A stretch of DNA of 59,384 nt, the filler included, from Sphacelaria rigidula (lineage: Eukaryota): assembly GCA_964200075.2 (NCBI GenBank). It is 10 parts of 10 records of this genome, joined end to end, with 100 filler letters (N's around TTAATTAATTAA, not from the genome) between each part and the next. Parts side by side here need not be neighbours in the genome. Positions count along the whole stretch, not along the records: positions 47,590 to 53,437 come from CAXNAA020023996.1; 9 more parts are not named here. One strand, 5' to 3'. Shown here in pieces: positions 5,950 to 53,719 of this stretch. The notes under the pieces are model-generated. The model saw only the letters and a program-made list of their open reading frames with translations, was not told the origin of the DNA and did no database searches. Position numbers and translations under genes: made by a program. Numbering within the stretch: the first letter of the stretch is position 1; every line of letters begins with the position of its first letter.

Positions 5950-6262
5950 TTTCTCGTATTATTGTCCAGAGGCCGCTCTCAAAATCTCTGACCCAAGCGA
6001 ATCGGAAAAGTGGGCTAGGCTCCTCTCGGTGGGGTGATACAAAGTGTCCAAGACGTGTGGTGGCGATGTTCCCTGTTTGGGGGTCAAAAAACCTTGCCAA
6101 ATGTCCTAAAAGTGGAAAATGCGAGCCAAACAAAATACAAACCGGAAGAAACGACCTAACAGATGAATAATCAAGGAGAACCATCTGTTGCATAGCTCAT
6201 CAAGAGCGTAAGGAAATTCGATAGTACAAATTTACTCGAATGAAAGCGCAACACGCGCGCAA

Positions 6263-7905
6263 TGGTTTCCCCTGACACATCCAGGGATTTCGGATATAAT
6301 GAATGGAGGTATACGTCCCGCGGACATGTTTGATGATGTGGAGAACATTCAAGGTGCCGAATCACTTCCGGTTGCCCGACCCATGTCAAGATCAGCTCCG
6401 TCACACACCTGCTCCCAAGGAACCCCGCCGTCTTCATCTCAAGAGGCAGCCGAAACAAGTCATCCAGTTGAGGACCCGTCTGGCGGTGAAGTGGACTGTT
6501 CCCAAGAGGACACACATGTGAGAAATGCGGTGAACATATCTGAAGTTGAGAATTGGGATCGCTGCAACGAACAGTTGTTCGACATTCTATACTTGACAAC
6601 TACACACCCAGCGGGCAGTTTTCTTGTTCGCTTCGAGCCGAAGGATCGTGCAAGGCCTGACGGTAAAATTGCATGGGGTGTCCTGGTCGGTAAACACGAG
6701 AACTCTTTGAAGCAACTGCGGCGCATTTTCATGCGTCAGCTAGATAACATCAAAATGTCACCTGGGCAAGACCCTGACGTGTTTCTAACCAAGGTCTATG
6801 AACTTCGTGACCAGCTAGTTTACATGGGTGGACCCATTTCAGATGAAAGAGTCACGGACATCGTGGTGGAAGGTTTGACCGATGAATACGATAGGATCAA
6901 GTGTGATGCAGAAAGCGACCCTTGTAATGCGTGAGGTACTTAAAGGACCGCATCGGAATTCAAACACCCCTATGGTTAGGGTTAGGGTTAGTGTTAGTGT
7001 TGGGGTTGGGGTTGGGGGTTAGGGGCATGGTTCCTGCAGGGACTGGCCCGATTGATTTCGAAAAAGTTCGATCCTGAGTTGTTTTGGACGACGATGCGGT
7101 CCTCTAAGCACGCGGTCCTGTCACGCATAATACCCTGACTTCAGTATCTTCGACATCGAAGTCACAACGAGGAATATGCACTCAAATCGCGTTACACGCG
7201 GAATTCTGCCAAAGGGAGTACGCGGACGTGATTCCGCCATGATAGCAGCATCGCCGCTTGATTCATTTGCAAAACTTACAAGATTCGCTGGAAAATGTTA
7301 TTCTTGTGGTAAACCAGGTCACCATGTGCGGGACTGTCGTCCTCAAAGACAGTCTCACAGAAGGAGCGGGCCTGTGAAGTGGTGCAGCCTTCATCGTACC
7401 GATAAACACGACAATCCCGAATGCAAGAGTCAAATTACCAATGGTGGTGCGTCTACGAACAGCAGCAGGAACGACAACTACTACGACAAGAACAACCATC
7501 GCCGTCGTCCCAACACACGCAACAATAACAGTAACTCCGGCTTCAGCGCAAACAGCATCATCAACCATCCGAATCAAGCTAATACCGCCACCATGGGTCC
7601 TGCATCAACTACTGCATCAACTACTGCATCAACTACTGTTCCTTCCAACAACCAAGTCCAAGACACCAGCGGACCTTCATCTTCAACAATGCCTGACTTA
7701 TGCTCGCCACCAAGCGGCATTGGCGATGGCTTTTTTGCTGATCCTGCAGACAAGGACAACACTCGGTCACCGGTTTCTACATAATTCAAGATGGTATGTG
7801 ATTCCGGGGCCAGCCACTATTACATTGACGATCGGCTACAGACCAATATTGAAGAGGAGATGTTTAACCGTGTGAAACTCGATTATCCCATGAAGATTCT
7901 TATAT
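6263..7905 (+). mobile_element. Ty1/Copia gag-protease remnant, interrupted by a MITE and truncated by an RTE LINE
   Basis: Gag-like WGVLVGKHEN...DPDVFLTKVYELRDQL...GLTDEYD; zinc knuckles CYSCGKPGHHVRDC and WCSLHRTDKHDNPEC; protease motif VCDSGASHYYID near 7795-7830. Confidence 0.85.
6923..7132 (+). mobile_element. MITE with TGT-type TIRs, 4-bp TSD CCCT and an internal telomere-like (TTAGGG)n tract (Ginger-like)
   Basis: TGTAATGCGTGA...TCACGCATAATA flanked by CCCT at 6919-6922 and 7133-7136. Removing it restores the gag frame ESDP-DFSIFDIE. Confidence 0.85.
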
Positions 7906-10900: not shown

Positions 10901-11798
10901 CGGTGATCTTACCGTGTGATGATGTAGTCAATGCGTTTTCTGTCCGCGGGGCGATTTGCAACACCGTTGAACGTACGCGAGGTGTTTCCCTTGGGGGTGG
11001 AAAAGTCGTGTTGACCAGCGAAAGATTGTTGTCGCCTGCAAATTGTACTAGAGAATTGCCGTCACCGTCGTTGGATTGGGAATCTCGACCGTAAGCCCCT
11101 ACAAATTTACGTTCCTCCTCGCCTGTTCGTCGTCCAGTCCTCGCATTAGCTTCCATTGAAATAAGCAGGTGATGCTTGTGGGGGATGCAATTCACATTGC
11201 CATCTAACTCAGCCCAGAACACATCTCTTTCTTCTCTTGACTGTGGAGTGTCTGTCGGGGCGTAGGCAACGACAAATGTCGCAGCATTTGATTTACCCGC
11301 TAGGTTGAAAGTCATTGACATGAGGCGTTCGCTCATGAGTGCCTGAATCCACGCCGCCTTGCTGATGATCGACTGCTTGACTGCCAACCCAACCCCATGT
11401 TGACCAGCCCTTCCCTTGCCCCCCTCTGCCCCGCAACAAAAGACGCGGTATCCCGCCGCAGAAAATTCGGATCGACCTGTTCTCCTCGTTTCCTGTAGCC
11501 CGATGACATCACATCCGACTACCTGACATTTTTTCAGGACCACCTCAGCATGACCCGCTCCGTTCTTACCCGTGAGGGACAGTGAACGGACGTTATAGGT
11601 GGCCACTTCGAGCTCCCCACTACGTGTCCTAGCTTTAACCTTCTGTATGTTCACGCGTCTTTCTCTCTGTTCTGCTCCCCTTTTTGGTCTGTTGCGCCTT
11701 CTAATTTTACGAGCGAGCTGTTGTTTCTGTTCCGATTTTGCTTCGGTACATTTATCACGGTACTTGCCTTGCTTGTTGGTCTCGCGGGAAGGGTGCAG
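7908..11798 (-). mobile_element. RTE-clade LINE (APE + RT), frameshifted, with T-rich 3' UTR and (TCAA)n tail
   Basis: APE motifs ATYNVRSL, DVIGLQETRR, VVAYAPT; RT motifs GPDGIPPEILK, FIDLQKDYDSV, LYADD, LLYGCATW. The 3' end reads ACCACGGCTGGACCCCTGGGGGGTCAGTGAAAGTGCGACAATCAATCAA. Confidence 0.95.
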
Positions 11799-11898
11799 NN
11801 NNNNNNNNNNNNNNNNNNNNNNNNNNNNNNNNNNNNNNNNNNTTAATTAATTAANNNNNNNNNNNNNNNNNNNNNNNNNNNNNNNNNNNNNNNNNNNN

Positions 11899-19560: not shown

Positions 19561-19620
19561 GGAGGGGGGGGCGGGGGGGGTACTGATGATCTTGCGTGCT
19601 TCCGTCATATGACCGTTGAC
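19561..19620 (-). mobile_element. Short 3' end of poly(C)-tailed retroelement, subfamily P2
   Basis: Reverse complement reads GTCAACGGTCATATGAC...GCAAGATCATCAGTA followed by a C tract; homologous to 50170-50211. Confidence 0.65.
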
Positions 19621-19846
19621 TACTTCCAGAGACAGCCATGGCTTACACGTTGCCTCATGAGTGTGTTACCATTTCAAAACTACGCAGTACGGTCATCCAC
19701 TTTGCGGGAGTTGAGGTCCTCCAACCCGCACAATATTATTCAGCTCGACCAAGATCATGGTTACTGCGAAAAAAACGCTAGCGCGCAAAACAAATCGGGA
19801 ATCTGATTTCCTAGCTTACGCAGTGAGTGGCGTGTTTTACAGCGTC
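19621..19846 (+). repeat. Dispersed repeat R (~230 nt), second copy at 49268-49505
   Basis: Shared blocks GACAG.CA.GGCTTA, GGAGTTGAGGT, AGCGCGCAAAA and TGAGTGGCGTGTTTTACAGCG. Confidence 0.75.
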
Positions 19847-22350: not shown

Positions 22351-23796
22351 CGCGGCATATCGAGCAACGAAGCGCATTAACACTCCCTTCTCGACCCCCC
22401 GATCGAAAACAAACATGATGATGAACGTTTTTATTGTTCGTGCACCGCAAACAAAACCGCACTGTTGATGTGTATCACGTCTATCACTCCGTTGAGCTCG
22501 ATAGGGGGGCTTTGCGGCGACGCGTACCGTACCTCCACGTGTACATGGAGATCACATAATATTATGTCGGCTGTGTTCCCCCGTTTCGATGTTGCAGTGC
22601 AGAAGGACCAATGTTAGAGTTATCCCGTAGTATTCTGGAAGCCGCTCTACACCTTTCGGTACATGTGGGCGCAACATGTCCAATAAGGTTTCACTTGGGA
22701 CTCTTGCCGAGATAACCCCCCCACAAACCGGCAACAAAGGTGTGCAGAGGGGGTGAAAATATAGACCGTTCGAGCTGGTTTCGCGAGGACGAACCGACCC
22801 TTTTGGGTGTTATAACTGAATTAGGGCTAGTACACTCTTCTCACGTGGGCGAATCTGCTGCAAAGGAACAACCCAATATTGGAACCGCAGCCTCGTTCCA
22901 ATCTCTCACACCTGGACGTTTTTGTGCGAGGTCCAAAACATCCGTCATCCGGCAAGGAGCATGCTACAGTCCTGATGCCGACATAGACCCTTCACAAGAA
23001 ATGGCTGGTTTTGGGACGCGAAAAGTACACGTAAATCGATACGAGAAAAGCCGGGTACAACGAGCAGCTTCGAACGTCAAGGATAGGGGGGGTTCGCCGC
23101 CGTAGTCGTCCCAACGACTCGCTTCATACATCCTGAAACCAAGTATCAGGCGCTGTACGACCACTTCCTTCGTGGGGGGTTCGGGCTGGTTCTTTGGAGG
23201 GGCTATCTCAGCCTGGCTATAAGGAAGATGAAACGTCGACGACAAACCACGCCACGAACCGGACGCCGACGCGAACAGCGCTGAAGTCGTCATGATCAAA
23301 CGAAACCGTTCATGGCCAAATTACATGGGCATGACGTGGACTTAGCATAGATGAGCTTCACTGACAGTACAGCACACTGCTTAAAGAGCGATACCCACGC
23401 CACTCACGCGACTCGATGAGCATATCCCTGGTACCCGTCGACAGATATCCAGAAACATGTAGAAAACGCATGACCTACAGGCTAAGGCATCAAGAACCGA
23501 GGCAGTCACCGTCTCCGTCCTGCTACAAAACAAATGAAGAACTTCTCGACGCGTAGGGGGAACGAAGCACTATTGCTTTCTTCGTCGGGGTCAACATGTG
23601 TTCGAGCACAATACAACGGAGGGAAATCCACTCGGCAAGTTAGGCGGTGTAAAATGGCGAGCGCTTGCTTGGGCGTAATGAAGCTTACCCCCCCCCNNNN
23701 NNNNNNNNNNNNNNNNNNNNNNNNNNNNNNNNNNNNNNNNTTAATTAATTAANNNNNNNNNNNNNNNNNNNNNNNNNNNNNNNNNNNNNNNNNNNN

Positions 23797-24063
23797 GAGA
23801 GAACGGGGGTTCGATTCCCGATGCGTTGGGTTTTCCCTTCGTGATGTATGATTTCCACCGTGGAAAGCGTGAAAACGTGAGCAAATAAAATAGTCGACTG
23901 GGTTTGTGTGACGTGAGTTGACGTGGTGCGGGAGTGCTGATCCAACCCGCGAGACCAAAATGAAAAGCACGTACCGGGAAAGAGAGTGGTCAATCCCTTG
24001 AGACCACGGACTCATCCCGAGGAAGGGCGGGGGAGGGGGGGTTCAAAGTGTGAGGAAAAAAAA
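23797..24063 (+). mobile_element. Candidate tRNA-headed SINE with an RTE-like 3' end
   Basis: B-box GGTTCGATTCCC at 23808-23819. The 3' part GAGACCACGG...GGGGGGTTCAAAGTGTGAGG(A)n resembles the RTE terminus; a similar end lies at ~41660-41719. Confidence 0.4.
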
Positions 24064-25109: not shown

Positions 25110-28100
25110 CTTTTGCAGAGTGCTACGTCGACACGAAGATAAATGGCAACGGCGGAATAGCAGTAGACATCAGCGTCCGACCACAGTGCCTGTGCCACGG
25201 CCGAGATAAAACAGGCGGATGAGATGACAAGGAATCATCAAGTGGTTGATATACAAATCACTGCTCCATGTGGAGACAAGAATAAGCGCGTAGTTCCGGG
25301 CCAAGGAATTGAGTACCTGGAGTCTACAAGAGTCTGCAAGAAAAAGCAAAGGACCGTTACTGCTGGCCAGTGAAAAGCGACTTGGAAACCGATAATCCAC
25401 CCCGCTTTGTCAAGGAACACCTGTGTGACAGAACAGAAGTGATCGACGACACGAAATTCGACGAGAGCATATCGATAAGGGTACCAGGAGAGGGGGGAAC
25501 AAGGGACTTCTTTGTTGGGAACATCTATATGCCCCCCCCAGGATCGTAGAGTAGGGTATACGATATACAGCGGAGGTTTGAAGAGATAGCAGCAGATGTA
25601 CACAAGTACAAAAGGCAAGGAGGGGTAATGTTCGTAGGACATTTTAATGCAAAGGTTGGAAATGCAGGTCAACCGGACAACATCATTAGGCGAGACGGGG
25701 AAGATAAGAGGAACACGAATGGAGTAGAAATGCTGAAGTTTTTTGAGGATAACGCTAGATGAAGACGCTGGACGATAGAGCACAAAAGCCAGAGGCGTAA
25801 TGGACATGGACTAGAAAATGCAAAAATGGGATGGAACGCTCCGTTTTTGACTATACAGTGCTAGAGCATGGAAGTAGTAAAGAAATGGAAGTACAGGTAT
25901 GCACGGAGGACGTGGGAACTGCAGAGCATTGCCTAATGCAGACAGAAGCCAACAGGCGAGAGCAAAAACAAATAGGCGGGGAAGGAAGTTGTACAAATGG
26001 AGAATCGATAACCTAGAAATGGAAGAAAAACAGCAAGAGTTTCAAGAAGAGATGGCCAAAAATAAAAAGCGACATTTTCCGAGCTGTTGGAACGCGTAAG
26101 TACAGCTGACACCGAAACGGCACGGGATCAGGCAGGAGCGAAGATTATAAGAGGATGAGAGCAGCTGATCAAGACCACAGCGATTAAAGTCATGGGGAAG
26201 AAACTGATCGTATGCAACAGAGCAGTAACATGGTGGCATGATGGAGTAAAACAGGATATAAAGGTAAGGAGAGAGGCCCACGCGTGATAGATATCGAGTA
26301 AAACTACTGCAGGATGGGAGAAATATACCAAAGCTCGAAAGGAAGTAAAAATGATGGAGAAGAAAAAGAAGGGAGTATGAGAAGATGTAGTGGATAAAAC
26401 AAGTGAAGATTTCGATGGCGGGATGAAGCGAATGTGGGTAGAGATACAAGGGATCACAGGAAACCAGGCAGGAAAAATAGACAAGGGGATGGCCACAATA
26501 CCGGCAGAGAATGGTAAAACGGTCAGTGAATTCAAAGGGGAAGAGAGAAGTGCTAGTAGAGCACTGCCGTAAATTAGGAACACCGAAAACAAACACGAAG
26601 TTCGACACGGAATTCGAAAAAAAAACGTGGGCAGAGGCAAATGTAGAGGCGTAAAAACGGGAGGGTAGTGGCTTGAAAAAATTGCAGAGAAAATATACCA
26701 GAGATAAAGTAAAGGAGTGTGTAGCTAAACTCAAGAATAGAAAGGTAGCAGGGGGCAGACGAAATAGTGAATGAATTCTCAAAGTACGGGGGGAAGGGAA
26801 TTATTGCTATAACGGTTATGCTGTATAACTGGATCTGGAAAAACGAGTACACACCCGAGAAGGTGGAGACAAGGAATAGTAGTCAACCATTTCAAAAAAG
26901 GAGACAAGGCTGACCCAGGAAATTTTAGTGGGATAACGCTACTGAGCGCGGTGGGGAAAACATTATGTAAGATTCTGAGCGATAGAGTAGGAACGATACG
27001 AGAAAAGGAAGACAAAAACAGCAAGGGGCAAGCGGGTTCTAGACCAAACCGTGGTTTCGTACACCATGTGTACACACTAGGTAAGATTATTCTAGGTAGG
27101 AAAGACCCCAGGCTCACGTACTGTTCCTGGACGTGCAAAAGGCTCATGACATAGTGTGGAGAAATGGGCTCTGAAAGAAGTTGTGTAAAACTGGGATCAG
27201 AGGAAAGATGTGGGGAAAGATGAAGAATATGACAGAATGTGTCAAAAGTGCGATGATCCTAGAGGGGGAGATATCGAAATACTTTGGTATTTTACAAGGA
27301 GTTACACAAGGATGTACGTTATCACACACTTTATTCAAGGTATTTTTCGATGACCTAATAATGACGACACACGCAGCAACGGCAGGAGTCAAGGTCGGTG
27401 GAGATATGGTATCATACCTGATGTTCGCGAATGATTTTGTGGGTGCATCAGGAACACAAAAACGATCGCAGAAACGACTAGAGAAAGCGCTAGAATACAC
27501 CAGGAAATGGAGAGTAGCAACGAACGCTAATAAATACGCGGTACTCGTATTTAACGAAGATAAGAAAAATCCGGTATAGAGTTCAAATGAGAGTGGGGAG
27601 AAGAGTAACTGCCAATTGTAGACCAGTACACATACCTTGGTCGGAGAGATCTCAATAAACTGTTCTTGGGATGCACACATGAATAAAGTGATAAAAAACG
27701 GTAAGGCAAAGATGGGCAAGATGGACGTGATCCTCAGAGCCTCGCACCTAGATACCAGGATTAAGATATGTGTTCTGATTAACGTGATTATACGAAAACT
27801 GGAATATGCAAGAGAAGTATGCGAGGTGCACGTGAAGTTGGTGAAGAAGTTGGAAACAGTACAGATGGCAGCAGCGGAGGACATACTTGGGTGCTCGAAA
27901 ACGACGAGTAATACAGTACTGAGAGCAGAGTTGGGAATGTACCAACTCAAATCAGAGACATGATAAAATTGAGAGGCAATATGACATGAAGAACATGCAG
28001 AGAAAAATATTGCTAGCCATGGTTGACAAGGCTGCATGGAAGAAAATTACGAAAGGGCGGGCCGGAATGAGGTGTGATAAAGAAGTCGAGAAAGTATGGA

Positions 28101-28766
28101 AGGGGACAGGAGGAAGCCAATACAAAATACTGTCCGTAGGTGAAGGCGCGGGGTACAAGACAAAAGTAAGGCACACGATAAAATAAGAGGATAAGAAGCG
28201 CTCAGACGCAAAGTAGACGAGGAAGAACACCTGGAGATATACGGGGGGTTGAGAGAGGGGATACGGATGAAAACATATCCGCATGGCCCAATAGACGCGG
28301 CGAAAAATCTAAAAGTGCGATATCGGGTGGGGGGCCTGGATCTGCCAGAGAGAAGAAATATATATACCAGTGGTCGAGAGGAGGAGATAGCAGATGCACA
28401 GAATTGCCTGTGTGGCGAAGCAACAAAGAGCAGAACTCATATGGTGGCAGAATGTGAACCATACAAGGAGGAACGGGACGTGCTAGAGGGGGAGATGCGG
28501 GACGTGAACAAAGGTGGCATGGCATCCTTTGATGCATAGGACAGTAGCGAGAAAACGATGGGTATACTAAGAGATAGATGGTGCCAACAGGCGGCGAAAC
28601 AAGACGGGGATAAGATATGTAAAAGGCTTTTGTGTAGTGAGTGGAAGAAACGTAATGAGCGCCGGAATGTTGGAGGTGTCTCAATTAGGAGTAGGGACGG
28701 TGCTCCGTCTCGAAATGAGTGCGTGACCAGCGGTCAAACGACTGAGTCAAGCAACAAATAAGTACG

Positions 28767-28804
<38 letters not shown>
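25110..28804 (+). mobile_element. Decayed APE-RT-Zn-finger LINE (RTEX-like) ending in a poly(C) tail
   Basis: APE: IYMPP, GHFNAKVGN, NTNGVEMLKF, FDY. RT: KVAGADEIVNEFSKYG, GQAGSRPNR, FLDVQKAHD, GVTQGCTLS, LMFANDF. C-terminal CLCGEATKSRTHMVAECEPY. Stop TAA at 28759-28761, then GTACG, then a C run at 28767-28804. The 5' limit is uncertain. Confidence 0.92.
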
Positions 28805-28806
<2 letters not shown>

Positions 28807-29058
28807 AAAAGGCCTTGGTTTCTTGGAGCACCCCCGCCCCCCGAGGGGGACAAAACTGGGGNNNNNNNNNNCCCCGTCCGGAAAACAGTGCGGAACCACC
28901 GGTCAAACACCTCAGTCCAACAACAAAAAAGCACGCCCCCCCCCCCCCCTCCCCCCCTGCCCACTCCCCAAAAAGAGTCGCTTGGTTGCTGAGAGCTCCC
29001 GTGCCCAACGAGGTTAAGATACTGGGTGTAGACGTTCCCGTGGTGCTTCGTGCTTTCA

Positions 29059-29307
29059 GAGTCATTCTACGATAGGGGGGGGGGGGGTCGACTCCACGAA
29101 AATGGGCTCATAGATGCTTCAGGCGACGTAGCACACGCGCGGTGCGCCTGTATTTCGGAAAAAGCGGTGTCGAGCGGAATGAATGAGCGTTATTTCTCGG
29201 GAGCAAGCACGTTTGAAAAACCATTGCTGCCATCAACGACGATTGAAAGTACAATATCGTGTATGAAAACGGCCCAAAATACCCCCCCTCCCATCGTAGC
29301 ATGACTC
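29059..29307 (+). mobile_element. MITE family B, TIR GAGTCAT(T/G)CTACGAT(A/G)GG..., 4-bp TSD TTCA (Sola-like termini)
   Basis: TTCA at 29055-29058 and 29308-29311; GAG...CTC ends; homologous to 32987-33339. Confidence 0.88.
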
Positions 29308-29559
29308 TTCACGGTACCTGGATGTGTCCAAGACGGCCGCTTCGATACCGTCCCCGCGCGCTCGTGGTCGGAGAAAAAAACAGCAGTGACTGCTACTGAT
29401 GTACGATAGCTCGATCGTCGTCTGCGCCTGACCTCCCGGTGCCTTCTTCACTCGCCCGATGTAGTTGGTCTGACACACAACGCCGAGACCATGACAAACA
29501 AGGAGAGCGACGAGGTCCGCAGTCGATTAGTTGACCCAGGGAAATACTCATTTTGTGGC

Positions 29560-29745: not shown

Positions 29746-29884
29746 TTGACCCTTCCCCACTCCTCCCTTGGGAGACGGAGCGCCCCGTTCCTCCTTCCTC
29801 ATAGACACCCCTCCAACGTTGGGGTTGGGGGGGGGGGAAGGGTGTACTTATGATCTTGCATGTCGTAGTCATTAGACCATTGGC
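29746..29884 (-). mobile_element. Two stacked poly(C)-LINE 3' ends: P1 at 29746-29818 (noisy) and P2 at 29843-29884, separated by a G tract
   Basis: GAGACGGAGC...AGACACCCCTCCAAC matches the reverse complement of 28669-28712. GTGTACTTATGATCTTGCATG...AGACCATTG matches P2. Confidence 0.65.
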
Positions 29885-30183
29885 GAGGGGGGGTAACGTT
29901 GCTTGAGGGTCATGAATACATCACCGGTATGCAGCAAAATGTAGGTTGATGCAAACATAACACTTCAAGTCCCGTATCGAGTAAGTAACACCTACGAGAG
30001 AAGCATGTGTACTCAGGGGAGGGACTTTGCCAGCTACAGGCCATGGCTCCCTCCCGCCCTCCTCCGCGCATTTACATGATGAAAGAAAAATCTTGCGAAA
30101 GTCCAGCACAACAACTCATGGTACAGTACTTGCCATCGTCATCATCTACAGTGCATAGCAGGTACTCCCATCCTCATAGGAGA

Positions 30184-30717: not shown

Positions 30718-33700
30718 GATGTGAACGGGCAAGCCGGATTATCCCGATTATCCGCCACGTAGCACTCAGCGAATGAGGACACCAAGCGGTCTATCTTCTG
30801 GGACTCGCCGGGCAACCTGAACCCGCTGTCCGTGAGCAAATGCCTCAGAGCCTCCTCGAGCGTCATGCCATGGAAAGCGATGGCGCGAACATACTGCAGC
30901 CGAATAGCTTTCCAGTAGTCCCCCTGACCCGTGTTTATGTAGAACATGAGAAAAAAAAACAGAGGAGGGTTGCCAGGGTGCGGTATACATTTTTTAAAAG
31001 ACTACATACTTACAACACCAGATTTCCTCGACCTTTTTCCCTAGTTGACTAAAGCTGCACAAGGGGGAAAAAAAAATGCCGAGACGATTCGGCTTCGGCG
31101 AGTCTTCCCGTCTATTTACCCGAGGCACGTCCATCTCGTAATCCCGGGGTGGCGTCGTAGCGCATCAGCTAGTCGACGACGACGGATCAACTAATCAATC
31201 GATGAATCGATGCGCTCGCACTACCACTTGGTCTAATGACTCCTTCCAACCTTCTTCCCCATAAAAATTCACGATCTTTCAACAACCAGGACAATCATCA
31301 ACCTTTCAAATAATGAGGGAGGGAGGGGCGGGCTTCACACTTTACCATGTTCCTGTGTATGCTACGCAGGAAGAGCAGCTCCAATATGCATTGTTCAAAA
31401 GCTCGACTAAATCCAACAACAAACCCGGGACGATCCACTGTCCTGCAGCAACTTCCAGACCACAGGCGACAACATATGTAACCTTGGGAGCCACGGAATC
31501 CCGCTTGGGCAGGCGGGGAGTTTGCTGCGGTATCACGCCAACCCTCAGACAACGAAAATACGTCACGTGTTGAATCGGCATCAATTTCACTTGAAAAAAA
31601 GTATGCATGAGACACTTTCTACGATAGCTCCCCCCCCGCCCCCCTAAAAAAAAAAAGCGCCTGGTTTGGGGAGGCAAAATCTTCACGTAAATCGAAATGG
31701 GAAAAGCCGAGCACGACGAGCCGCTGGGAATTCCCACGCCTGGGTTCGTTGTCGACAACGTCGCCCATATGAGGCGCTTCATGCAGCCTGAACCCAAACA
31801 TCAGGCGCTGTGCGACCTTTTTTTTCGTGACACTTTTGGGCTATTTTTTTGGGGGGGGGAAAGGGGGGGGGTGAGGGGGTCTATCGTAAAAAATGTCATG
31901 ATCCAATTTTACTACCCCCACGGTGCAAGGGTCAAGTCTAGGTCCACAACTTTGCATTTCTGGGCGGGTAAATAACCCACGTCCTCTTACGTCATCAAGA
32001 TCCGGCTCGCCAAGGAATTCGCCGATGCTGAGAGGGTCCAAGTCGTCCTTGTAGATCCGCAAAAAGTTGGCGATGTCCCTATCATTATCCATCCAGACAA
32101 AACCATCGAGAGAAGAGAAAAAAAAATAGCGCTGACGTCAGACAGTGCTACGGTCAAATAGTGCGAAGGTCAGTGCTAAGGTCATACAAACCTCCGTGAG
32201 ATTCAAGTATCACATTTTTTTTTCCTAGTGAATACCCTAGTAAGCGGCCGTCACATCGAGATAGACACGTCGTTCTGGTATTTTCACTCTTTCGGGACCG
32301 AACCTCGACCAAGCAGGGGAGAGGACCCGGTCTGCACGCAAGATCCATTGGTGAATCCGACTCTTTACACGGTGGTCATTGTCGTGCTAGCCATCATAAT
32401 TTAGACATTTGCACACGTCGGACAGCCGACGAGCCACCTGAATATTACTTCTTATTCCAAGGACCGAAGCTGTTCAGAGTACGGCGGCACGTGCACTGCG
32501 CCAACCTGACAGCAGGCTTTAGTGGGTCGGACCCCCACACTGCCTAGAGCAAAGCTTGGGAACGCTCGAGGCGCCTACCCCGAATGACTGCCGTAACGCA
32601 GTCCCACCGAGCCTCCGAGCATTCGACACACGAGCCCGTTCGCGCGATAAGTTTTGGGTCAGGTTTCCCCCTTCCTTCAAAGAGAAGAAAAAAAAATACA
32701 CTCCTTCGTGATATACTGATCCGGATCATGAGCTACAATACCTGATTTGATCCCCTTTGTCCCCCATTTTCTCCCTACAGCGCTGGACGCCGAGCACTCG
32801 GAGTATCGCAAAGGTAGGGATATAACTTCTCCGACCCCGCTGTCACGTCTTGTGTGTTCTCGGACGGGGGATCTGAGAGTCCTCTTCGATTCGTTGTTTT
32901 TGGTATCTATAATAGATCATGAGCTGTCTTACGTGTGGACATTTGACTCATAAAAGTAAGAAGAAACCTATTGATGACAAGTATCCGAGTAATGCTACGA
33001 CAGGGAGGGGGGGGGCGTACTTATTTGTTGCTTGCCTTGGTCGTTTGACTATTGACCATGCATCCCTTTCAAGACGGAGCACCGATAGGGGGGAGTATTT
33101 TGAGCCCTTGTCTTCAACAACATTCCACTTCAATCGCCTTTGAAATCAGCCAACAGTTGTTCGAACGCGCTTGCTCCCGATAAACAACGCTCATTAACAC
33201 TGCTCTATACACCGCTTGTACCCAAATAAAAACGCATCGCGAGTGCTCCAGGTCGTTTGACGCATCTATCAACACATTTTTTCGAGGAACCGAACACCCC
33301 CCCCCTCCCCCTATCGTAGCCCTTATCGCAGCATGGCTCATCCAGAGTGATGCATGGCGTGACCACCTCACCGTGGAGTATCCGAAATGAAGTTGGAAGC
33401 CACCAGGAACTGTACAGCTTTCTTCAGGCCCTTGGTGCTGTACAGGTGTAGGGCTTGCGCGACGACCTCTTCTGCACGATTTCGCAGCTCTTTGCAGTAT
33501 CTAGCAGTCGAACAACGAAAAAATACGAACGCAGAGCCCGTGGGAAACGGACGGGCGGATGGACCGGAGGGGGGGAGGCATGGAGTAACGATTCAAATGA
33601 AATAAGAAAAGAAAAAAAAAGAAGACGGAAAGAAGATAAAACAAGAGAGAACAAAAAAGACAAGAAACATGGGAAAGAAGGAAAAAGAAAAAATAGAAAA

Positions 33701-34764: not shown

Positions 34765-35040
34765 TGACATTGATGGTCGCACTTCAGCTTATCCCTCAGG
34801 GATCCAGCCGTGGTCATTGTCCATAAGATAGACGTGCCCGAGACAAAACAGAAAAGGTAGAACAGACCAATAAAGTAGACTAAGAAAAAAACAAAAAGCA
34901 GACAACAGGAAAAGGAAAAAAATAGAACTGGTCAGCCTCTACCAACCACATGGCTTCGATGTCACATCATAACTGATCTCCGCGGGATCCAGCCGTGGTC
35001 ATTGTTCACCAAGATAGGCGTACCCAAGAAAAAAAAAAAA
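34765..35040 (-). mobile_element. Two short RTE-type 3' ends (~34765-34860 and ~34962-35040); a third lies on the plus strand at ~35440-35475
   Basis: GGGATCCAGCCGTGGTC core shared with the RTE terminus at 7940-7970, followed by A-rich UTR sequence. Confidence 0.7.
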
Positions 35041-35897
35041 GTGGCTGCGGTAGGGTATGCAGGGTATTTGGAGTACGCAGTACCACAGGGTCCCCAGAGT
35101 GTCGAGTACCAACAATACGCAGTGCTCCATTTTTTCTTCTTTTTTTCTTTCACGGAAGGAAAAAGACCCAAGCCAACACTTACCTCGCAAAGCAGGTTCG
35201 TTTGCCGATTACGCGAAGGCTCGGCTAGACTGCCTCGCGGCAGTCATATGGGGAAGGTGCCTGATATGCAGGGTACGGCCTATCGAAAATAATCGGGATT
35301 TCAGGGTATCTACGGTATCGACAGCCTGGAGTACTCAGGATTCCATGGTACCCAGGCAGCGAACTATGGAAAATACTCTATATTCTGTAGAACAGGACTT
35401 TTTCTGTCCATTCTTTTTCTTTAGCAAGCGTTTCAGTGTTGTTTTTCTCGGGTACATCTATCATGAGACCACGGAGTGATGCTACGGTAGGGGTACACTA
35501 ATATTTTCTGAGGTTAGAACTGTAAAGAGCCCTTTATCTCATCCAAAACACGAGTAATGAAAATATGCGAGTGTACGCCAGGATTACTATTCCNNNNNNN
35601 NNNNNNNNNNNNNNNNNNNNNNNNNNNNNNNNNNNNNTTAATTAATTAANNNNNNNNNNNNNNNNNNNNNNNNNNNNNNNNNNNNNNNNNNNNCTTCCCT
35701 GCAAAAGAGAAATGCCACTTCAACCCCACATTTTGTATCAACCCCATTTTCGAGGATCCACTTTTAACAGGTACCCATGCCCCTGGCACATCGTTAGGAA
35801 TGATGTTTCTGGTCTTGGTTTTCCCAGTACAGGGGGTATGTGAGATGCCGATAGCAGTGTTCGAAACCGAGAAAGTACACAATCGACGGCGTTACTA

Positions 35898-37770: not shown

Positions 37771-38039
37771 GACATTTTTAACGGTAATAGCCCCCCCCCA
37801 AAAAAACTCAGCCCAAAGAGTGTTACAAAAGTCTGGACATACAGCGTCTGATGTTTGGGTTCAGGCTGCATGAAGCGCCTTATATGGGCGACAGGGGTGA
37901 GGACAAACCCAAGCGTGGGAGTTCCCAGCTGCTCGTTGTGCTCGGCCTTTTCCATTTCGATTTAGGTGACAATTCCGCCTCCCCAAACCAGGCACGTTTT
38001 GTTTTTGGGAGGGGGGCGGGGGGTATCGTAGAGAGTGTC
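37771..38039 (+). mobile_element. MITE family A copy (flanks GCTG/GATG)
   Basis: GACATTTTTAACG...TATCGTAGAGAGTGTC; the body is homologous to 31611-31897. Confidence 0.85.
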
Positions 38040-38419
38040 GATGGCCTGGATGAAGTAGCTTGAGTCAAGGAAAAGGAAACAAGCTTGCTTGGCAGGCATT
38101 GTGTTAAGTTGCGGGAGCTGCCGACAAGCGCAGTCTTCACGTCAGTTGCTGGGCACCTTGGGGGGGGGGTGTAGGTGAGGTTCGCATCCTTTTTGGTTCA
38201 AGCTGGTTTTTGTACTGCTGTAACGATCGTGTGCAGTTGGTTTTCCTCTTCTCGCGCTTTCTTTCCTCTTTTTTGCTTCCGGCATGTGACGTGTGACGCT
38301 GGTACAGTGTAGTACTGCTGTACGCCAGTAGCGCGGCAGTTAGCTGTGTTCATGTGAACGGTTACACTGAGTGAATATGCACATGTTAAATGTGTGATTT
38401 CACTCATGGTTAATGTAAG

Positions 38420-41100: not shown

Positions 41101-41749
41101 ATACAGCAGTGGTTTTCTTCCACATCATAAAAAAGGGGCATCGTGCTAGGTGTTGGTCCTGTATCGCACCATTAATAATCGATTGCGCTGTATCCAGGGC
41201 GCTTCCAATTTCAATTTACTCCGGTGTTTGTGACGTTGCGGTCTCGGATTTCGGCGGTGAAACCGGAGTGGTCTCGGCTGGGCCCTTCTACTCTAAAATG
41301 AAGGTCCGCCGCACGGACCCGGGGTATGGTGATGTGTCGTTGAACGGAAGCGGAAAAACAGCCTGGATTCGTTTGTGAGGTTCAACATTCGGGTGAGGTT
41401 CAACGGACCATCGAAATTCCATTTGCTTTGTCCAAAAGGCTCGGGATTCGCAACTGCTTTCGACCATGTAACCCTAACGCAGAAGTTTCCGCACGGCAGC
41501 GAAAGCATGATGACGAGCAGTCCAACAGAAAAGCCACCGTCNNNNNNNNNNNNNNNNNNNNNNNNNNNNNNNNNNNNNNNNNNNNTTAATTAATTAANNN
41601 NNNNNNNNNNNNNNNNNNNNNNNNNNNNNNNNNNNNNNNNNCCACAAAGCCGCTGACGCGCGCGACCGCGGGGACGCGCGGGGCCGGGGGGGGGGGGGGG
41701 TTCAAAGTGCGACAAAAAAATAGAATAAAAGTCCAACCCCGATGAACTC

Positions 41750-47308: not shown

Positions 47309-47489
47309 TTGATTGATTGATTGATAGCCGAACTTTAACTGACCACCCAGGGGTCCAGCCGTGGTCTCAATAAAAACGGAACTCAAACATGCTCTAAGGA
47401 AAAAAAAAAAAAAAGGAACAGAAAACAATAGGAACAGGAAAAAGAAAAAAAAAAAAAAAGAAAAAAAAAAAGAAAGAAAAGAGAAAAAA
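47309..47489 (-). mobile_element. RTE LINE 3' end with (TCAA)n tail
   Basis: TTGATTGATTGATTGA...CCAGGGGTCCAGCCGTGGTCTCA followed by A-rich UTR, as at 7908-8060. Confidence 0.8.
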
Positions 47490-48249
47490 NNNNNNNNNNN
47501 NNNNNNNNNNNNNNNNNNNNNNNNNNNNNNNNNTTAATTAATTAANNNNNNNNNNNNNNNNNNNNNNNNNNNNNNNNNNNNNNNNNNNNCATATAAGAAG
47601 CAAATGCCAGGCTACCACGAGACCTAGCAAAAAAGCGAGAGCAGAAACCAAACACACAAAAATAAATTCCCCCCCCCCCCCCTCCCCCCCCATTGAACTA
47701 AAACATCGCTACAGAAAAACTGACGCGTCAAACCCTCCTCCACGAAAGGTCCCACAAATGCATGAAAAAACCACTCGAGAACACAACACGCAAGCTCTGA
47801 CAGTAAACACTTTTACACCCCCATATTCATGCCCTTCTCTCTACCACGTCCACCATCCATACATGCACGCGCCTGCCTAGTAGAAGCCCGCGTCACCCGG
47901 ACACACAATGACTCTTCCATTCCAATTTGCCCAAAGACCTCACAACATCCACCACCACGATGATTTTGTTGGACTGCCGATCGCACGACATCAAGTGGAT
48001 ACGCCGTTTTGCCCCCGACCACCACATCCTCCGCCATTTACCAGTTCCCGCTCGGCACCTATACGTGCATTGCTGCAATATCGCGCAGATGTTGAAACCT
48101 CGCAGCTCTGCCCCCCCACCCCACCCGCCGCTGACGACCGTACTTCTTCCCCGGCGCTTGAACCGCCCCACTTCATCCCCGAGACATCCCGAGCAAAGTA
48201 CAGGATCGTACGGCAAAGGTTGATTGTAATCCCAACACTGGTGTAAACT

Positions 48250-51200
48250 TTAGGCGAGGTAGTTGTACGCACGTCTGGCGCACCAAAAAAAATAAGCACC
48301 AAAATGGTTGGAAAATACAACCGACGGAGGCACGAGATTGGCAAGGGGGGGGCGAGAGGGCGGACGGAGGGAAGTACCGTGCTTAGTTTCTTTGAGTTTG
48401 TAACATGAGGTGCCGAGAAAAGTAGAGCAGAAGCGATGAAATTCTGAGGCATTTTGCACCGAGTACAGATGAATAAATCCGCCTGTTGAGTCGAAACGAG
48501 CAGCAGACAAACAAAAAAGTGGTTCCGCAATATACCCAAAGAGAGAAAAGGCGGAGGTTGCGATATCCACTGAAACTTTACTGTCGAGAAGAACTTCCCT
48601 CGGCCCGCCCCCTCCCTCCCCGACGCGCATCGAGTAGGTATGAGCACATCCGCCGTTCAGGTCGACACGGACAGCAGACAAGCAGACAGGTGGGAAATAG
48701 TTCCGCAACATATGAAAAAAAAAGGAGTGAGATGATATCCACCAAAACTTCACCGTTGGGAAGAACGTTCCCTGGTCCGTACCACCCCCCTCTTCCGCAT
48801 TCCCTCCCCCTCACCTGTCGCCACGGTCCCGTTCCAGGTATTCTCGGTCAATAAGGCTCTCGATGCGCGATTTGATCACGTGTGGAGACGGCACGAATCG
48901 GCTCGAAAGCTGGCGTGTTACCTACGTGTTTTCACGTAAAATACGATACGAGAAATAGCAAAACAAAAAAGGAGATCGGGGCGTGGGGGATATAAAAAAA
49001 GGGGGCGCGGGGGGTGTACTCATGATCATGCATGCCGTGATCATGAGACCTTTGACCTCGCATACAAAGCCGGGACGGAGCACACCGGGTTTTTGACGGA
49101 CCAGGCTCGCACTCAATCACCAAGCGCGAAGCGCCGTGATGTGTTCGGCGAATCGCATGAAGGGTGAGCTGTATCCTGCTAGACATTGTTCGGCCCGAAG
49201 CCTACTGATTATCTTGCATTTGGATTACATACAGCCTGCAACGAGCTGCTTCATTATCCGGCATCACTACTTTCGGCGACAGTCACGGCTTATGCACTGC
49301 CTTGTAGGTGTTTAACCATTTACACACTACGTAGGGCGATCATTCCTATTGTGAGGAGTTGAGGTTCCTTCACGCTGCACAACATGATCTAGCCCGACTA
49401 CCATCATGATTACCGCAACAACAACAAAAAAAGCCAAGCGCGCAAAAACAAAAATCGATAACCTGGTTGCCTATCTCACGTAATGAGTGGCGTGTTTTAC
49501 AGCGCCATCGCCACCCGACGCCAACCCCCATCGGAGGTCCACCCCTACAAAGCCGGGACGGAGCACGCCGGGTTCTCGCCGGACCAGGCTGAGGGGGGTG
49601 GGGGGGCACGATCTGTGATCCGGGATCCAGAACGTAGGATCCAGGATTCCCGAAGAATAAGACATATCATCACTACAAGAACGCTGAAAACTGACTAGCG
49701 CCAGCACCCAGTACAGTAAGAAAAATAAACAAGCAAAGGAAACAGATTTATGACTCATCGATCGTGCAATATCGCAATCGAGTGTTCCTTCATGAAATAG
49801 ACCGCACGCTCGGCGGCATTAGCTAGAGGAATACAACGATAGAGCACAGGACAATGACGCGTGGGAGATGCCATTAAATTAACGCAAACATGCAACATGA
49901 CCCCACAACCCAGTACACGATAATTGTATCTCTTGGGAATATACACGACCTGCCTCACGCAATCTTGATACATCAACGAACCAATCCTCCGTATCACCAA
50001 AAAAAACTACTAGACCCCGCCCCGCCCCTCCGAATGATCTTAGCAGGGTGCAGCTCACCTTGCATGCGACTCGCCAAACACACCACGGCGCTTCGCGCTT
50101 GGTAATTGAGTGCGAGCCTGGTCCGGCGAAAACTCGGCGTGCTCCATATCGGCTTTGAAGGGTTGCGAGGTCAATGGTCTCATGACAATCACATGCATAA
50201 TCATGAGTACACCCCGCCCCTCCCAAAAAATAAACAAACGAATATCAAAGACTAGAAATGAACATGCGCCTTGTCCATCGCGCTTGACCCTCACCTCTGC
50301 TACTAGCTCATTGTGCCGGAGACTTTTCCGCGCCTTCATGATGCGCACCACCGCCGCTTCCGTCAGATGTCTGAGTACAAGTCCACATTTCATCAACCAG
50401 GGGCCGAAAAAAAAGGTTGGTTTTTCTCATCTTTATTCACGGCGTGACAAAGCAAGTTGGGGCAAACACACAAAAAGAAAAATAGTCCAGTATTCACCAA
50501 AAGCGAAGAGTTGTTCTTACAACATAACTCAATATATCGGAGCGCGCCCCAACACACGTTTCGCCTCGCGTATGGATCTCGCTCGAGGGTAACAAAAAAA
50601 CATGATTGTGACCAGACTCTAGACTCTAGTCTTGCCTTTCGGTCGTCACCCGAACACCAACCAACACGGGATTTCACAAATTGGGGATGGGTGTTTTTTT
50701 GAGAATAAAAAGCACGGAAAATTAAAATCTTCGTATCAACACCAAATCGTCGAAATATAGTTCCATTTATTCACTTGCTGGTAGCAATTGACAACTACTA
50801 CACGCGATACAAATTTGGATTTCGATAACCGAAATATTGGGGTATTAGGTGAAGAAACAATTTAGGGGAATTTCAGCCATCTGGTAAATTCCCCAAAAAT
50901 AGTCTTCACCTAGGACCACAAAAGGTCGGTCATCAGGATCCAAATTTGTATAGCTTGTAGTAGTTGTCAATAGTCACCAGTAGAAGAAGGAGTGGGACCA
51001 TATTTCGAAGATTTGGTGTGGACACGAATATTTTAATTCTACGGGTTCTCGTCCTTAATGAAACATCCATCCCCAATTTGTGAAATCCCGTGTTGACCAC
51101 TTTAAGAACACCAACAAAGTAATCCCACGACGAAGGGGAGGGGGAGGGGGGGGGAGCGTACTCATTTGTTGCTTGCCTTAGTCATTTGACCACTGACCAC

Positions 51201-52348
51201 GCATCCCTTTCGAGACGGACCCACGACGAAGGGGACAGATGTTCATCGAACCATCTTCTCCCTCGAAGGAAAGCCACTCTGGAGCGTCGATGATGACACT
51301 AAACTACACGTGAACGCTCTCGATAGCGTCAAGATCAACACACGTAGTCAACACCCGCCTGACAACGTTTTACTTCGTGCAACCAAGCATCCCCCTCCCC
51401 CCCAAACCTCCTTCATGGAATCTCCGCCGATCCACCGATATCAGCACCGGTATCACTGCCACTAATCACAACGAGACCATCATTACCGCTTCCACTTCAA
51501 AAATATCGTCCACTGCCGAACGATCGCCGCGGACTCACCGGCACCAGCACCAGCACTACTGCCACCAATCACAACGTCACCATCATCACCGCTTCTACTC
51601 TCAAAATACCCCCTTAGTTATAGGATATCTGCCAATCCACCGGCAGAAGCACCAGCACTACTGCCACCAATCAAAATATAATCATCACCACCGCCAACAC
51701 GCAGAAAGTCAGCAAGCACTACGGTAAGCGCAAAAATGCCCATGCTTTTTCTAGCTCATGTATGCTCTCCATCTCCGCTCAAAGGATAAGGAGTAGATAG
51801 GTCGGTACGAGAGCAGCGAAGCGAACAAGGACTCGAATCACCGTCTCGCGGAGCGGGGAGGAGAGGGGTTGTGCCGAACTCATGATACTGTAGAAAGCTT
51901 GTGGGAGAAGTATACGATTATTCAGTTCAGTTACACGAGTGGTAACGTAGCTGAAAGCCAAAACAAAATTCAGGTACTGTACCAACACTGTATTCTGAAC
52001 TAACCCCACCCCCCTCCCTTTCCTCCGTCTCGAAAGGGATGCGCAGTCAATGGTCAAACGACCAAGTCAAGCAACAAATGAGTACCCCCCCCCTCCCCCC
52101 CCCTCCCCCTCCCGGCACACCAAGCACCACTTCAACATCACCACCATCATAGCACGTACTCGACATACTGTACGTGGATAATTTAAAACGTACCTCCTGT
52201 CTTCCTCCACGGCAGGCGGGAGCGCCTGTGTCGCCGGCCCCGACGCGGAATCCTTCACGCTCACCAGCGGTATCCGCACACGCTTCAGCTTGGACGTGAA
52301 GTCGCGGTTGAACGAGAAAGTGTCATCCGGACCCGAGATCCCCTTGCC
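48250..52348 (-). CDS. CUL3: Cullin-3-like protein, C-terminal part; exons 52348-52194, 50370-50295, 48921-48815, 48274-48250
   Basis: Spliced product ...[17 protein letters not shown]...[74 protein letters not shown] contains the neddylation motif VRIMK. Phases are consistent. The CUL3 subtype is judged by resemblance. Confidence 0.93.
48480..48810. repeat. Diverged intronic tandem duplication, period ~175 nt
   Basis: CAGCAGACAA...GTTCCGCAA...GATATCCAC..AAACTT...GAAGAAC occurs twice. Confidence 0.7.
49001..49193 (-). mobile_element. Poly(C)-tailed element P2, ~180 nt
   Basis: Reverse complement aligns end to end with 50030-50211. A further P2 fragment lies at ~49546-49590. Confidence 0.85.
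49268..49505 (+). repeat. Dispersed repeat R, second copy
   Basis: Homologous to 19621-19846. Confidence 0.75.
50030..50211 (+). mobile_element. Poly(C)-type element P2 with 12-bp TSD CCCCGCCCCTCC
   Basis: TSD at 50020-50031 and 50212-50223; the element ends ATCATGAGTACA. Confidence 0.88.
50662..51095. mobile_element. Foldback MITE, CAACACGGGATTTCACAAATTGGGGATGG...CCATCCCCAATTTGTGAAATCCCGTGTTG
   Basis: Perfect 29-bp terminal IR, with imperfect arms continuing to a small central loop near 50877. Confidence 0.92.
51140..51219 (-). mobile_element. Poly(C)-LINE 3' end P1 with 16-bp TSD
   Basis: CCCACGACGAAGGGGA at 51124-51139 and 51220-51235; extra G tract at 51140-51154. Confidence 0.93.
51440..51700. 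repeat. Intronic minisatellite, about three units of 85-105 nt
   Basis: GCACC(A/G)G...CTGCCAC(C/T)AATCA...CATCA..ACCGC repeated three times. Confidence 0.75.
52023..52097 (+). mobile_element. Poly(C)-LINE 3' end P1 with degenerate ~15-bp TSD
   Basis: CTCCGTCTCGAAAGGGATGCG...GCAACAAATGAGTAC followed by a C tract; flanks CCCCCCTCCCTTTCC / CCCCCCTCCCCCTCC. Confidence 0.88.
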
Positions 52349-52580
52349 CTGCAGGCCCCGCCATGCACAGCAGAAACCAAGTTCGTGCGTGAGCGGGGAA
52401 GAGGGAAGAGAGAGGGAGGAAAAAATATCACACCGTAGATTCTACTGTCAAAAATGTACTGTGTAATGTATGAAATATTTTGTCTGATGCAATAGGCACA
52501 ATAGTTGATACTGTACGTAGTACACTTCTTGACTGTGTATTCCTTTGTCCAGGGAGTGAAAAATATACATAAAATATATA

Positions 52581-52994
52581 CTTCCTCTGTCCCATAAGTA
52601 AAGGTACCTCAATTTGTACGGGCCCTCAACGATGTCCGGTCGGGGTTTTTTTTTGTAATGAACTCCACGGTATTTTTGGGCCAGGAAAATGTGTCTAAAA
52701 TTTGCAGCTCGTGCTTGAACCGTGCCGCCGAACGGCTGCAAAAAAATTAGCCGGCCCAAAAATGGCCGTTTCTTGCTCCTTTTCTTCCCCTCGAAAAGTG
52801 GCAAAAAACGGCCATTTTTGGGCCGACTAATTTTTTTGCAACCGTTCGGCGGCACGGTTCAAGCACGAGCTGCAAAATTTAGACACATTTTCCTGACCGA
52901 AAAAACATCGTGAAGTCCATAAAAAAAAAAAACGATCGGACATCGTTGAGGGCTCGTACAAATTGAGGTACCTTTACTTATGGGACAGAGAAAG
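52581..52994. mobile_element. Stowaway-like (Tc1/mariner) foldback MITE, TA TSD
   Basis: TA|CTTCCTCTGTCCCATAAGTAAAGG...CCTTTACTTATGGGACAGAGAAAG|TA, with arms of ~200 nt. Confidence 0.93.
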
Positions 52995-53315
52995 TACATA
53001 TCTAGTCATACATGAATACTTTGAAGCCCCATCTTGTCTGCATGACACATACAACATAAATACTCTCCTGGGCTTTTCCCACAGCCACCCGGCTGTGACC
53101 TCATCAGCATCCTTCCTCATGAAATAGGCGGTGGTATGGCTTCGATTCTACTTTACTTCTCTCAGTGCTCTCGCAGCTACCTTCCATCCTTCAAGGGGGC
53201 GAGGGGGCGGGAGGATGCTTGCTTGCGTTGCGCAGAATAATGTAGCAAAAGCGTATATCCTGCGGTGTGCGTGTTTCGTCGTTCCAAGTAAGAAGGAAGA
53301 GTGAGCACGGGGGGG

Positions 53316-53382
53316 CGTACTCATTTGTTGATTGCCTTAGTCATTTGACCATTGACTACGCATCCCTTTCGAGACGGAGCAC
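53316..53382 (-). mobile_element. Poly(C)-LINE 3' end P1 with 13-bp TSD GAGCACGGGGGGG
   Basis: TSD at 53303-53315 and 53377-53389. GAGCAC is shared between element and target (5' microhomology). Confidence 0.9.
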
Positions 53383-53537
53383 GGGGGGGGGGGGGTGGAA
53401 GGGGCGCGCGTTTATACTCCGTGTATCATCTTCGCGTNNNNNNNNNNNNNNNNNNNNNNNNNNNNNNNNNNNNNNNNNNNNTTAATTAATTAANNNNNNN
53501 NNNNNNNNNNNNNNNNNNNNNNNNNNNNNNNNNNNNN

Positions 53538-53616
53538 GTGGAAGGATGTCTGACACACCTATGAGCCTCGTTTTTCGTGCAACCAAATACCCCCCCTCCC
53601 TGTCGTAGGATGACTC
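53538..53616 (-). mobile_element. Terminus of TIR family C
   Basis: Reverse complement of 5776-5849; ends ...CCCTGTCGTAGGATGACTC. Confidence 0.75.
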
Positions 53617-53719
53617 CCAAAAAATACGTTTTTTATCTAAAACCAAGTAGTTATAGTAGGAGTTTGCCTGTTTCAACTCACGCCCTCGTACAAACGCGCA
53701 AAACTTGACGCCGTCATTA

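Follow-up and report, generated by a model that had tools for sequence, protein, structure and literature searches.

A C-tailed LINE family in Sphacelaria rigidula and its probable priming from G runs at the insertion site

C-tailed LINEs and their described relatives

Mammalian L1, a long interspersed nuclear element (LINE), carries a poly(A) tail and nicks its target at TTTT/AA, and LINEs that target microsatellites exist as well. A LINE with a tail of another kind is found in a 59,384-nt stretch from the genome assembly of the alga Sphacelaria rigidula (GCA_964200075.2), referred to at its full length as the window. The reading favored here, with a probability of about 0.85, is that a set of repeats in this window are copies of a LINE encoding an apurinic/apyrimidinic endonuclease (APE) and a reverse transcriptase (RT), together with copies of a non-autonomous element that has the same 3' end as this LINE, and that both are C-tailed and primed from a G run of the target.

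The closest described elements belong to the curated repeat library of Ectocarpus, in which RTEX-1_Ec32 is recorded as 'single EN-RT ORF; (C)n 3'' (an endonuclease-RT open reading frame) with a 'C-rich' target-site duplication (TSD), and RTEX-2_Ec32 as '(C)n termini/TSD' (PMC12477816, Supplementary Material 3). RTEX-N1 (~600 bp, 'can be present in tandem') and RTEX-N2 (188 bp) have their last 60-100 bp in common, and RTE-X elements are the only (C)n-tailed LINEs of this library, where RTE-1/2_Ec32 have (CAA)n tails and CRE-1_Ec32 a (CA)n tail (PMC12477816). The main text of the same paper, in the part available, ranks RTE-X families as the most abundant, leaves the tail unmentioned ('C-rich' has 0 occurrences) and gives no priming mechanism. 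An RTEX-1 is also called recently active in the available part of the Saccharina genome paper. The original prediction had implied that a C-tailed LINE targeting C/G runs would be new, but (C)n tails and C-rich TSDs were thus already on record for Ectocarpus RTE-X (PMC12477816). Beyond this table, a literature search in which the bracketed term 'poly(C)' was unsearchable and whose coverage stopped short of subscription journals and Repbase reports returned neither G-run priming nor a poly-C-tailed LINE.

The Sphacelaria LINE shares with RTEX-1 and RTEX-2, as these are described (PMC12477816), the (C)n 3' tail, the C-rich TSDs and the abundant non-autonomous elements with a common 3' end; it differs in that host and family are others (59-74% protein identity at best, the comparison being one of descriptions and not of consensus DNA), in that 65-nt stumps dominate and in a copy number that looks much higher. 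Among named proteins, the nearest to it are unnamed products from Ectocarpus sp. CCAP 1310/34 (59-74% identity), in a search that gave 472 proteins with E up to 1e-10 out of 7999 scored candidates, and one Ectocarpus protein (P0005) has a C-terminal peptide similar to that of the LINE. Similarity to these unnamed Ectocarpus proteins, together with the type of tail, suggests assignment to RTE-X. A single EN-RT ORF that nearly reaches the 3' end is a further RTE-X trait; in the long Sphacelaria copy the stop codon does lie near the tail, but this copy has frameshifts and has lost its 5' end.

Like mammalian L1, the Sphacelaria LINE appears to use target-primed reverse transcription, with TSDs of variable length and frequent 5' truncation, and in both a homopolymer tail would pair with a homopolymer primer at the nick, with a TSD that begins with the tail base. 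Unlike L1, it has a tail of C and not A, almost no 3' untranslated region (UTR) and an RT distant from that of L1, and the window copy, itself 5'-incomplete, showed no ORF1. A templated repeat tail of variable length, and a target that is often the same repeat and can pair with it, are shared with the LINEs tailed by simple repeats, from which the LINE family described here differs by a repeat unit of a single base.

Coding capacity, insertion anatomy and target runs

The window is a mosaic of ten pieces of ~5849 nt separated by linkers of the form N44-TTAATTAATTAA-N44 (5850-5949, 11799-11898 and onward); distances across linkers are not genomic. Copies of the LINE are called A-type and those of a related family B-type, with A1-A6 and B1-B4 in the window and L001-L004 in outside contigs; only piece 47590-53437 is contiguous with the repeats of A1, A2, A3 and B1. 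Repeat relatives were found by BLASTN within the window, proteins were mapped by tblastn with P0035, P0005 and P0001, domains were assigned with Pfam, and the piece was compared with read-derived contigs from two studies (four public runs).

Coding capacity is found in A5 (25352-28766, plus strand), which contains a putative APE remnant (25352-25977), an RT region (26752-27951), a C-terminal CCHC region and a TAA stop codon (28759-28761). Pfam places RVT_1 at 27175-27576 on the plus strand (E 7.7e-08), upstream of the short-repeat copy at 28704-28766. A translated search with the RT piece of A5 returned P0001 (655 aa, 63% identity), whose own RVT_1 domain scores E 2.3e-32, so that an RT domain of LINE type is present in both the window copy and its relative. 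P0001 maps over residues 1-655 on 26800-28758 at 52-73% identity, and its C terminus (20 residues) is also the C terminus of the window ORF 28540-28761. P0035, an APE-RT relative with Exo_endo_phos, Exo_endo_phos_2 and RVT_1 domains, maps over residues 102-962 on 25352-27951, its APE part (residues 102-313) lying on the frameshifted 25352-25977 at 30-32% identity. From these protein matches, 25352-28766 reads as a frameshifted, 5'-incomplete LINE with APE and then RT in order. A Protein Atlas search with P0001 returned just generic RVT_1 clusters from animals.

These matches also set the polarity of the short repeats. P0001 residues 637-655 match 51221-51165 in A1 (89%) and residues 639-655 match 53374-53324 in A2 (94%): the 65-nt repeats are the final 17-19 codons of the LINE, its stop and GTACG(C). 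The stop codon of A5 is followed by GTACG and then by a run of C38 (28767-28804, plus strand), i.e., it lies 5 nt before the tail, with almost no 3' UTR. The direction of the ORF and the position of this stop codon make the C run a sense-strand 3' tail and so settle the polarity, which bears out the earlier claim that a C tail marks the 3' end of the element.

Four pairs of direct repeats had been proposed as TSDs, and all four were recovered by script: CCCACGACGAAGGGGA at 51124 and 51220 (16/16 identical), GAGCACGGGGGGG at 53303 and 53377 (13/13), CCCCGCCCCTCC at 50020 and 50212 (12/12) and a pair of 15-mers at 52009 and 52098 that match at 13/15 positions. Each exact repeat word occurs twice in the window, with zero occurrences on the other strand. 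The G/C run of the duplication was confirmed to abut the 3' end of the element, and it is the same element end in every case. In A1 (minus strand), the last ~64 nt of the LINE (51156-51219; C-terminal codons, TGA stop and GTACGC) lie between the 5'-end TSD copy (51220-51235) and the tail-side copy (51124-51139), from which they are separated by a tail at 51140-51155. This tail, which corresponds to the extra G stretch noticed earlier outside the TSD, is 16 bases long (G5 A G9 A) and reads T C9 T C5 on the sense strand after ...GAGTACGC. BLASTN finds 51155-51219 again at 53315-53378 (95%) and 52024-52085 (90%, opposite strand), these three elements being 90-100% alike, and in other pieces at 33015-33078 (89%) and 28704-28767 (84%, opposite strand). 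In these 5/5 copies GCGTACTC is preceded by a G run, the opposite strand thus reading ...GAGTACGC and then a C run.

The remaining A-type insertions follow the same plan. A2 (53303-53396, minus strand) has its element at 53316-53376 between TSD copies at 53303-53315 and 53377-53389, the latter continuing into 13 consecutive G up to position 53395; GAGCAC at A2 overlaps the sequence found there in longer copies, a microhomology. A3 (52009-52112, plus strand) consists of a TSD (52009-52023), the element (52024-52084), a tail of C9 T C3 (52085-52097) and the second TSD copy (52098-52112). A4 (32999-33095, minus strand) has its element at 33016-33083, with tail and TSD copy at 32999-33015 and the other TSD copy at 33084-33095. 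A6 (28876-28957, plus strand) is a diverged 3' end with a tail of C14 T C7, located 70 nt downstream of A5 and cut off on the 5' side by a 10-N gap.

Family B can be aligned with the LINE over its last ~70 nt and is related to, yet distinct from, family A. No protein match was obtained for it by tblastn with the LINE proteins P0035, P0005 and P0001, and it is probably a non-autonomous element that borrows the 3' end of the LINE, as judged from this alignment. B1 (50020-50223, plus strand) is a 180-nt copy (50032-50211) between TSDs at 50020-50031 and 50212-50223. B2 (49003-49606, minus strand) is a ~575-nt copy (49017-49590) with contig loose ends at 49590; it represents a seventh insertion, with degenerate C-rich tracts on both sides. 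B3 (19564-19844, minus strand) starts at 19581 and has a tail of C8 G C8, and B4 (29827-29893, minus strand; copy 29838-29886) is a 44-nt B 3' end plus CCCTT lying between C11 on the tail side and C7 on the 5' side.

Six insertions thus have both ends (A1, A2, A3, A4, B1 and B4), the TSD limits of A4 and B4 having been set by eye and the remaining repeats by script. Their TSDs measure 16, 13, 15, ~12, 12 and at least 7 nt. The elements are without terminal inverted repeats and their 5' ends differ (65, 70, 180, ~575 and >3400 nt), with copy lengths from 44 to >3400 nt; most copies are 5'-truncated, many of them to about 65 nt. Variable TSDs, 5' truncation, absence of terminal repeats and a 3' tail are the hallmarks of LINEs. 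Neither a ribozyme nor a known RNA was recognized in the element, as Rfam at gathering threshold gave 0 matches in the window, and RNAalifold on 11 3' ends yielded just a 5-pair hairpin (-3.3 kcal/mol, one pair with a double change), so that no 3' recognition structure is claimed.

At least seven C directly follow the 3' end of 10/10 A-type copies, six in the window (C7 to C38) and four in outside contigs identified by pattern scans (L001 C8, L002 C10, L003 C10 T C9, L004 C13). After the four B-type ends come C-rich tracts: CCCCGCCCC, C6GCGC5, C8GC8 and CCCTTC11. Poly(A), the tail typical of the L1 clade, directly follows 0/10 A-type ends; a six-A run after the C38 of A5 belongs to the flanking repeat. 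A fifth match from the genome contig scan (L005) was a chance match and is not counted among the A-type ends, and a scan of viral contigs for the element gave 0 matches. L003 and L004 are filed under bacterial metagenome-assembled genomes (one Sulfitobacter sp., one uncultured bacterium) yet carry this eukaryotic LINE, which is most simply explained by misbinned algal DNA.

The target sites themselves are C runs. The upstream TSD copy consists of target alone and is independent of the tail; it has CCCC within its first 6 nt in 6/6 bounded insertions (TCCCCT, CCCCCC, CCCCCC, CTCCCC, CCCCGC and CCCCCC), against a background of 0.0148 for the same test over all oriented window positions (p about 1e-11). 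Immediately before the run stands A in four insertions and G in the other two; on the primer strand, the G run would accordingly be followed by T or C. In every bounded insertion, the tail abuts the C run of the target.

One insertion can additionally be compared with its target in uninterrupted form. A family resembling miniature inverted-repeat transposable elements (MITEs), called D, has inverted ends of the form GAGTCATSCTACGAYAGGGA-Gn-TATTTGG.., with a G/C homopolymer run inside each terminus; one complete copy (29058-29312), two partial ones (53538-53625 and 5770-5849) and a region holding A4 (32985-33345) are found in the window. A4 sits in the G run of such a terminus. Uninterrupted D termini read CTACGA..GGGAGGGGGG once, then GTATTTTG, whereas in the terminus bearing A4 the segment is present on both sides, as GACAGGGAG9 ... 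GATAGGGGGGAG, then GTATTTTG. D termini devoid of the insert are a paralogous empty site for A4, and runs in D termini act as landing sites for the LINE.

Probable priming from a G run and competing explanations

Target-primed reverse transcription, with a G-run primer annealed onto the C tail, is well supported by this anatomy. The LINE transcript would carry a C run in place of poly(A), and since polyadenylation cannot yield C, this run would have to come from the donor locus. The bottom strand of the target would be nicked so as to leave a 3' end consisting of a G run, which would pair with the C tail and prime cDNA synthesis, and a second, staggered nick 7-16 nt away would create the TSD; with the nick at the run, the TSD would start with C beside the tail. 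A new C run is left by each insertion; as the MITE-like elements of this genome have such runs too, targets are plentiful and copies cluster. The original prediction had described the process as a G/C mirror image of L1 insertion with an APE that cuts after GGGG. Much of this holds, namely the retroposed copies, the variable TSDs, the C tail, the tail abutting a target C run and the fit to G-run priming. The cut after GGGG goes further than the data do: as tail C and target C look alike, a preference of the APE for G runs cannot be separated from the selection, by annealing, of those nicks that are able to pair with the tail.

Several points weigh against the reading as a whole. The likeness of tail and target C also means that the TSD start is always placed at the edge of the run, where the nick position is unreadable and any target C to its left would be counted into the duplication, and the sample is small (six bounded insertions and one with a degenerate C-rich repeat). 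The tails are often interrupted by a single T or G, an irregularity not explained if a pure C run were simply copied, and in B1 nothing of a tail is seen outside the TSD. The three short frameshifted ORF pieces of the APE region of A5 gave no APE domain with Pfam, leaving the tblastn match (30-32% identity) as the sign of an APE. Finally, no empty orthologous allele was seen in the contigs of the four runs, all of which break at the repeats with none bridging the element, a breakage that says nothing for or against insertion polymorphism.

Tentatively, the tail of the LINE may also be its target, which would make the family self-seeding, and the ~65-nt class may represent the minimal 3' unit required by the RT. 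Each insertion would then provide a C/G run from which the next copy could be primed. If true, self-seeding would account for the clustering (six copies in one 5.8-kb piece), for head-to-tail neighbors and for part of the excess of long homopolymers. Runs of at least 7 in the window number 47 for A (4.2 expected), 26 for C (2.9), 29 for G (2.6) and 12 for T (1.6), the 55 C/G runs exceeding the expected number of about 5.5 roughly tenfold; LINE tails or their duplications, as read by eye, supply about 14 of these 55. A ~65-nt unit, if it is indeed minimal, would be a natural and very short cargo handle for reverse transcription primed from a G run.

It is less likely, though worth weighing, that the ~65-nt units are a discrete, very short non-autonomous retroposon, or result from the RT stopping or switching at a fixed position, and are mobilized by the same machinery. 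The 4/4 short A copies (51156-51219, 52024-52084, 53316-53382 and 33016-33083) do start inside a 6-nt span, (GGTGC)TCCGTC, 65-71 nt from the tail, and short RTE-X-dependent elements are listed for Ectocarpus in the available part of PMC12477816. Joints from 51219 to 53309, present in 10, 15 and 6 contigs of three runs, suggest more loci where a 65-nt end abuts the G run of another copy; for these joints, however, the intervening sequence is not given and the mapping ends at 51219 by construction. Just four copies are concerned, the 65 nt are ordinary coding sequence from the C-terminal end of the LINE, and longer copies pass through the start point unchanged. A class defined by the first CC upstream of the tail was also considered and dropped, three copies holding CC within their 65 nt.

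In another scheme, the C tract would be untemplated, the RT adding G to the nicked target end before copying the RNA from ...GAGTACG. Some LINE reverse transcriptases are known to add nucleotides without a template, and such addition would suit a tail whose length varies from 0 to 38 and that shows odd T or G interruptions. It would leave unexplained, however, that the upstream TSD copy, being pure target, starts with a C run in 6/6 cases, while the presence of C tracts after all 10 A-type ends in several assemblies is what a heritable tail predicts. Untemplated synthesis of the tract is therefore improbable.

More improbable still is a LINE that is site-specific for the MITE-like terminal motif Cn-TCCC-TRTCGTAG-SATGACTC, of which the C run would be merely a part. 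This motif or a diverged form of it does follow the tail in 3/10 A-type copies: A4 as described above, A1, whose flank (AAGTAATCCCACGACGAAGGGGA) aligns with the D terminus, and L002, which is followed by a similar motif. The other 7 A-type and all 4 B-type copies lie outside such termini and have unrelated sequence after their C run. Since each terminus of the motif family has a C/G run close by, the overlap needs no more than a preference for runs, and insertions into D termini are thus best attributed to the run that these contain and not to specificity for the whole motif.

An origin of the repeats by chance in G/C-rich DNA of low complexity, or by faulty assembly of homopolymers, can practically be dismissed: homopolymers are error-prone, two 10-N gaps adjoin such runs and the repeat at 52009/52098 is C-rich and imperfect, but the 16-nt and 13-nt repeats are complex sequence with exactly two occurrences that abut element ends, contigs of two studies cover the junctions, and the C-tailed element is also present in four unrelated outside assemblies.

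Abundance, genomic surroundings and significance

Among the contig matches listed, those of two runs, X1 and X3, both cover 51191/2-52002+ and 52972/3-53337/8, and X3 alone covers 49569-50092 and 50151-50748; the listed junction contigs show zero or one difference from the piece. Summed contig depth of the element bins is about 1.5 million, compared with 25-40 for unique bins; in X1 it reaches about 0.9 to 1.8 million, versus 23-71 in the unique bins of X1, which, although summed depth is not copy number, indicates that the LINE family is very large.

On piece 47590-53437, the first half of a Cullin_Nedd8 domain is encoded by an exon at 50289-50369 (minus strand, E 2.2e-09). The LINE copies flanking this exon thus probably lie in introns of a cullin gene or a short way downstream of it. 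An upstream cullin exon had been suspected at 52200-52380 (ORF 52070-52441, minus strand) and was set aside, as it gave no Pfam match. The same piece holds two long hairpin-like inverted repeats of MITE-like appearance (50640-51100 and 52560-53000), both repeated as judged from run depth, the end of the second being reminiscent of Stowaway-type ends, and a ~100-nt tandem repeat at 51420-51694 (51420-51592 versus 51523-51694, 74%) within an open reading frame in which Thr, Ile and Pro codons abound.

Elsewhere in the window, a second LINE (7909-11798, minus strand) with Exo_endo_phos and RVT_1 domains has a (TCAA)n tail, comparable to the (CAA)n tails of the Ectocarpus RTE elements, and just 31% identity to P0001 over 80 RT residues. 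It is apparently inserted in or beside a copia-like element, whose gag and zinc-knuckle part lies at 6212-7784 (plus strand), and further 3' ends of it occur at 47309-47428 (minus), 35399-35474 (plus) and 34769-34815 (minus). A ~250-nt repeat family has CTACGATAG-Cn-An at its edge (11-222, 22983-23202, 31611-31859 and 37791-38040), and the sequence after the C38 of A5 resembles its A-run side. Two loci on the minus strand (24035-24041 and 41686-41700) both read ...CACTTTGAA and then a C run (C7 and C15, respectively), and may belong to a further C-tailed family. The pieces ending at 5849 and starting at 53538 are both broken inside copies of one repeat.

Relative to what is recorded for Ectocarpus, the value of these observations lies in a second host, in the insertion anatomy at base level and in one paralogous empty site. 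They indicate that the tail of a LINE need not come from polyadenylation, and a C-tailed LINE offers a natural test of whether pairing between tail and primer, beyond the specificity of the endonuclease, sets the landing sites. In the genome of Sphacelaria, this LINE family ranks among the main repeats and probably gives rise to C/G homopolymer runs, with assembly gaps as their consequence.

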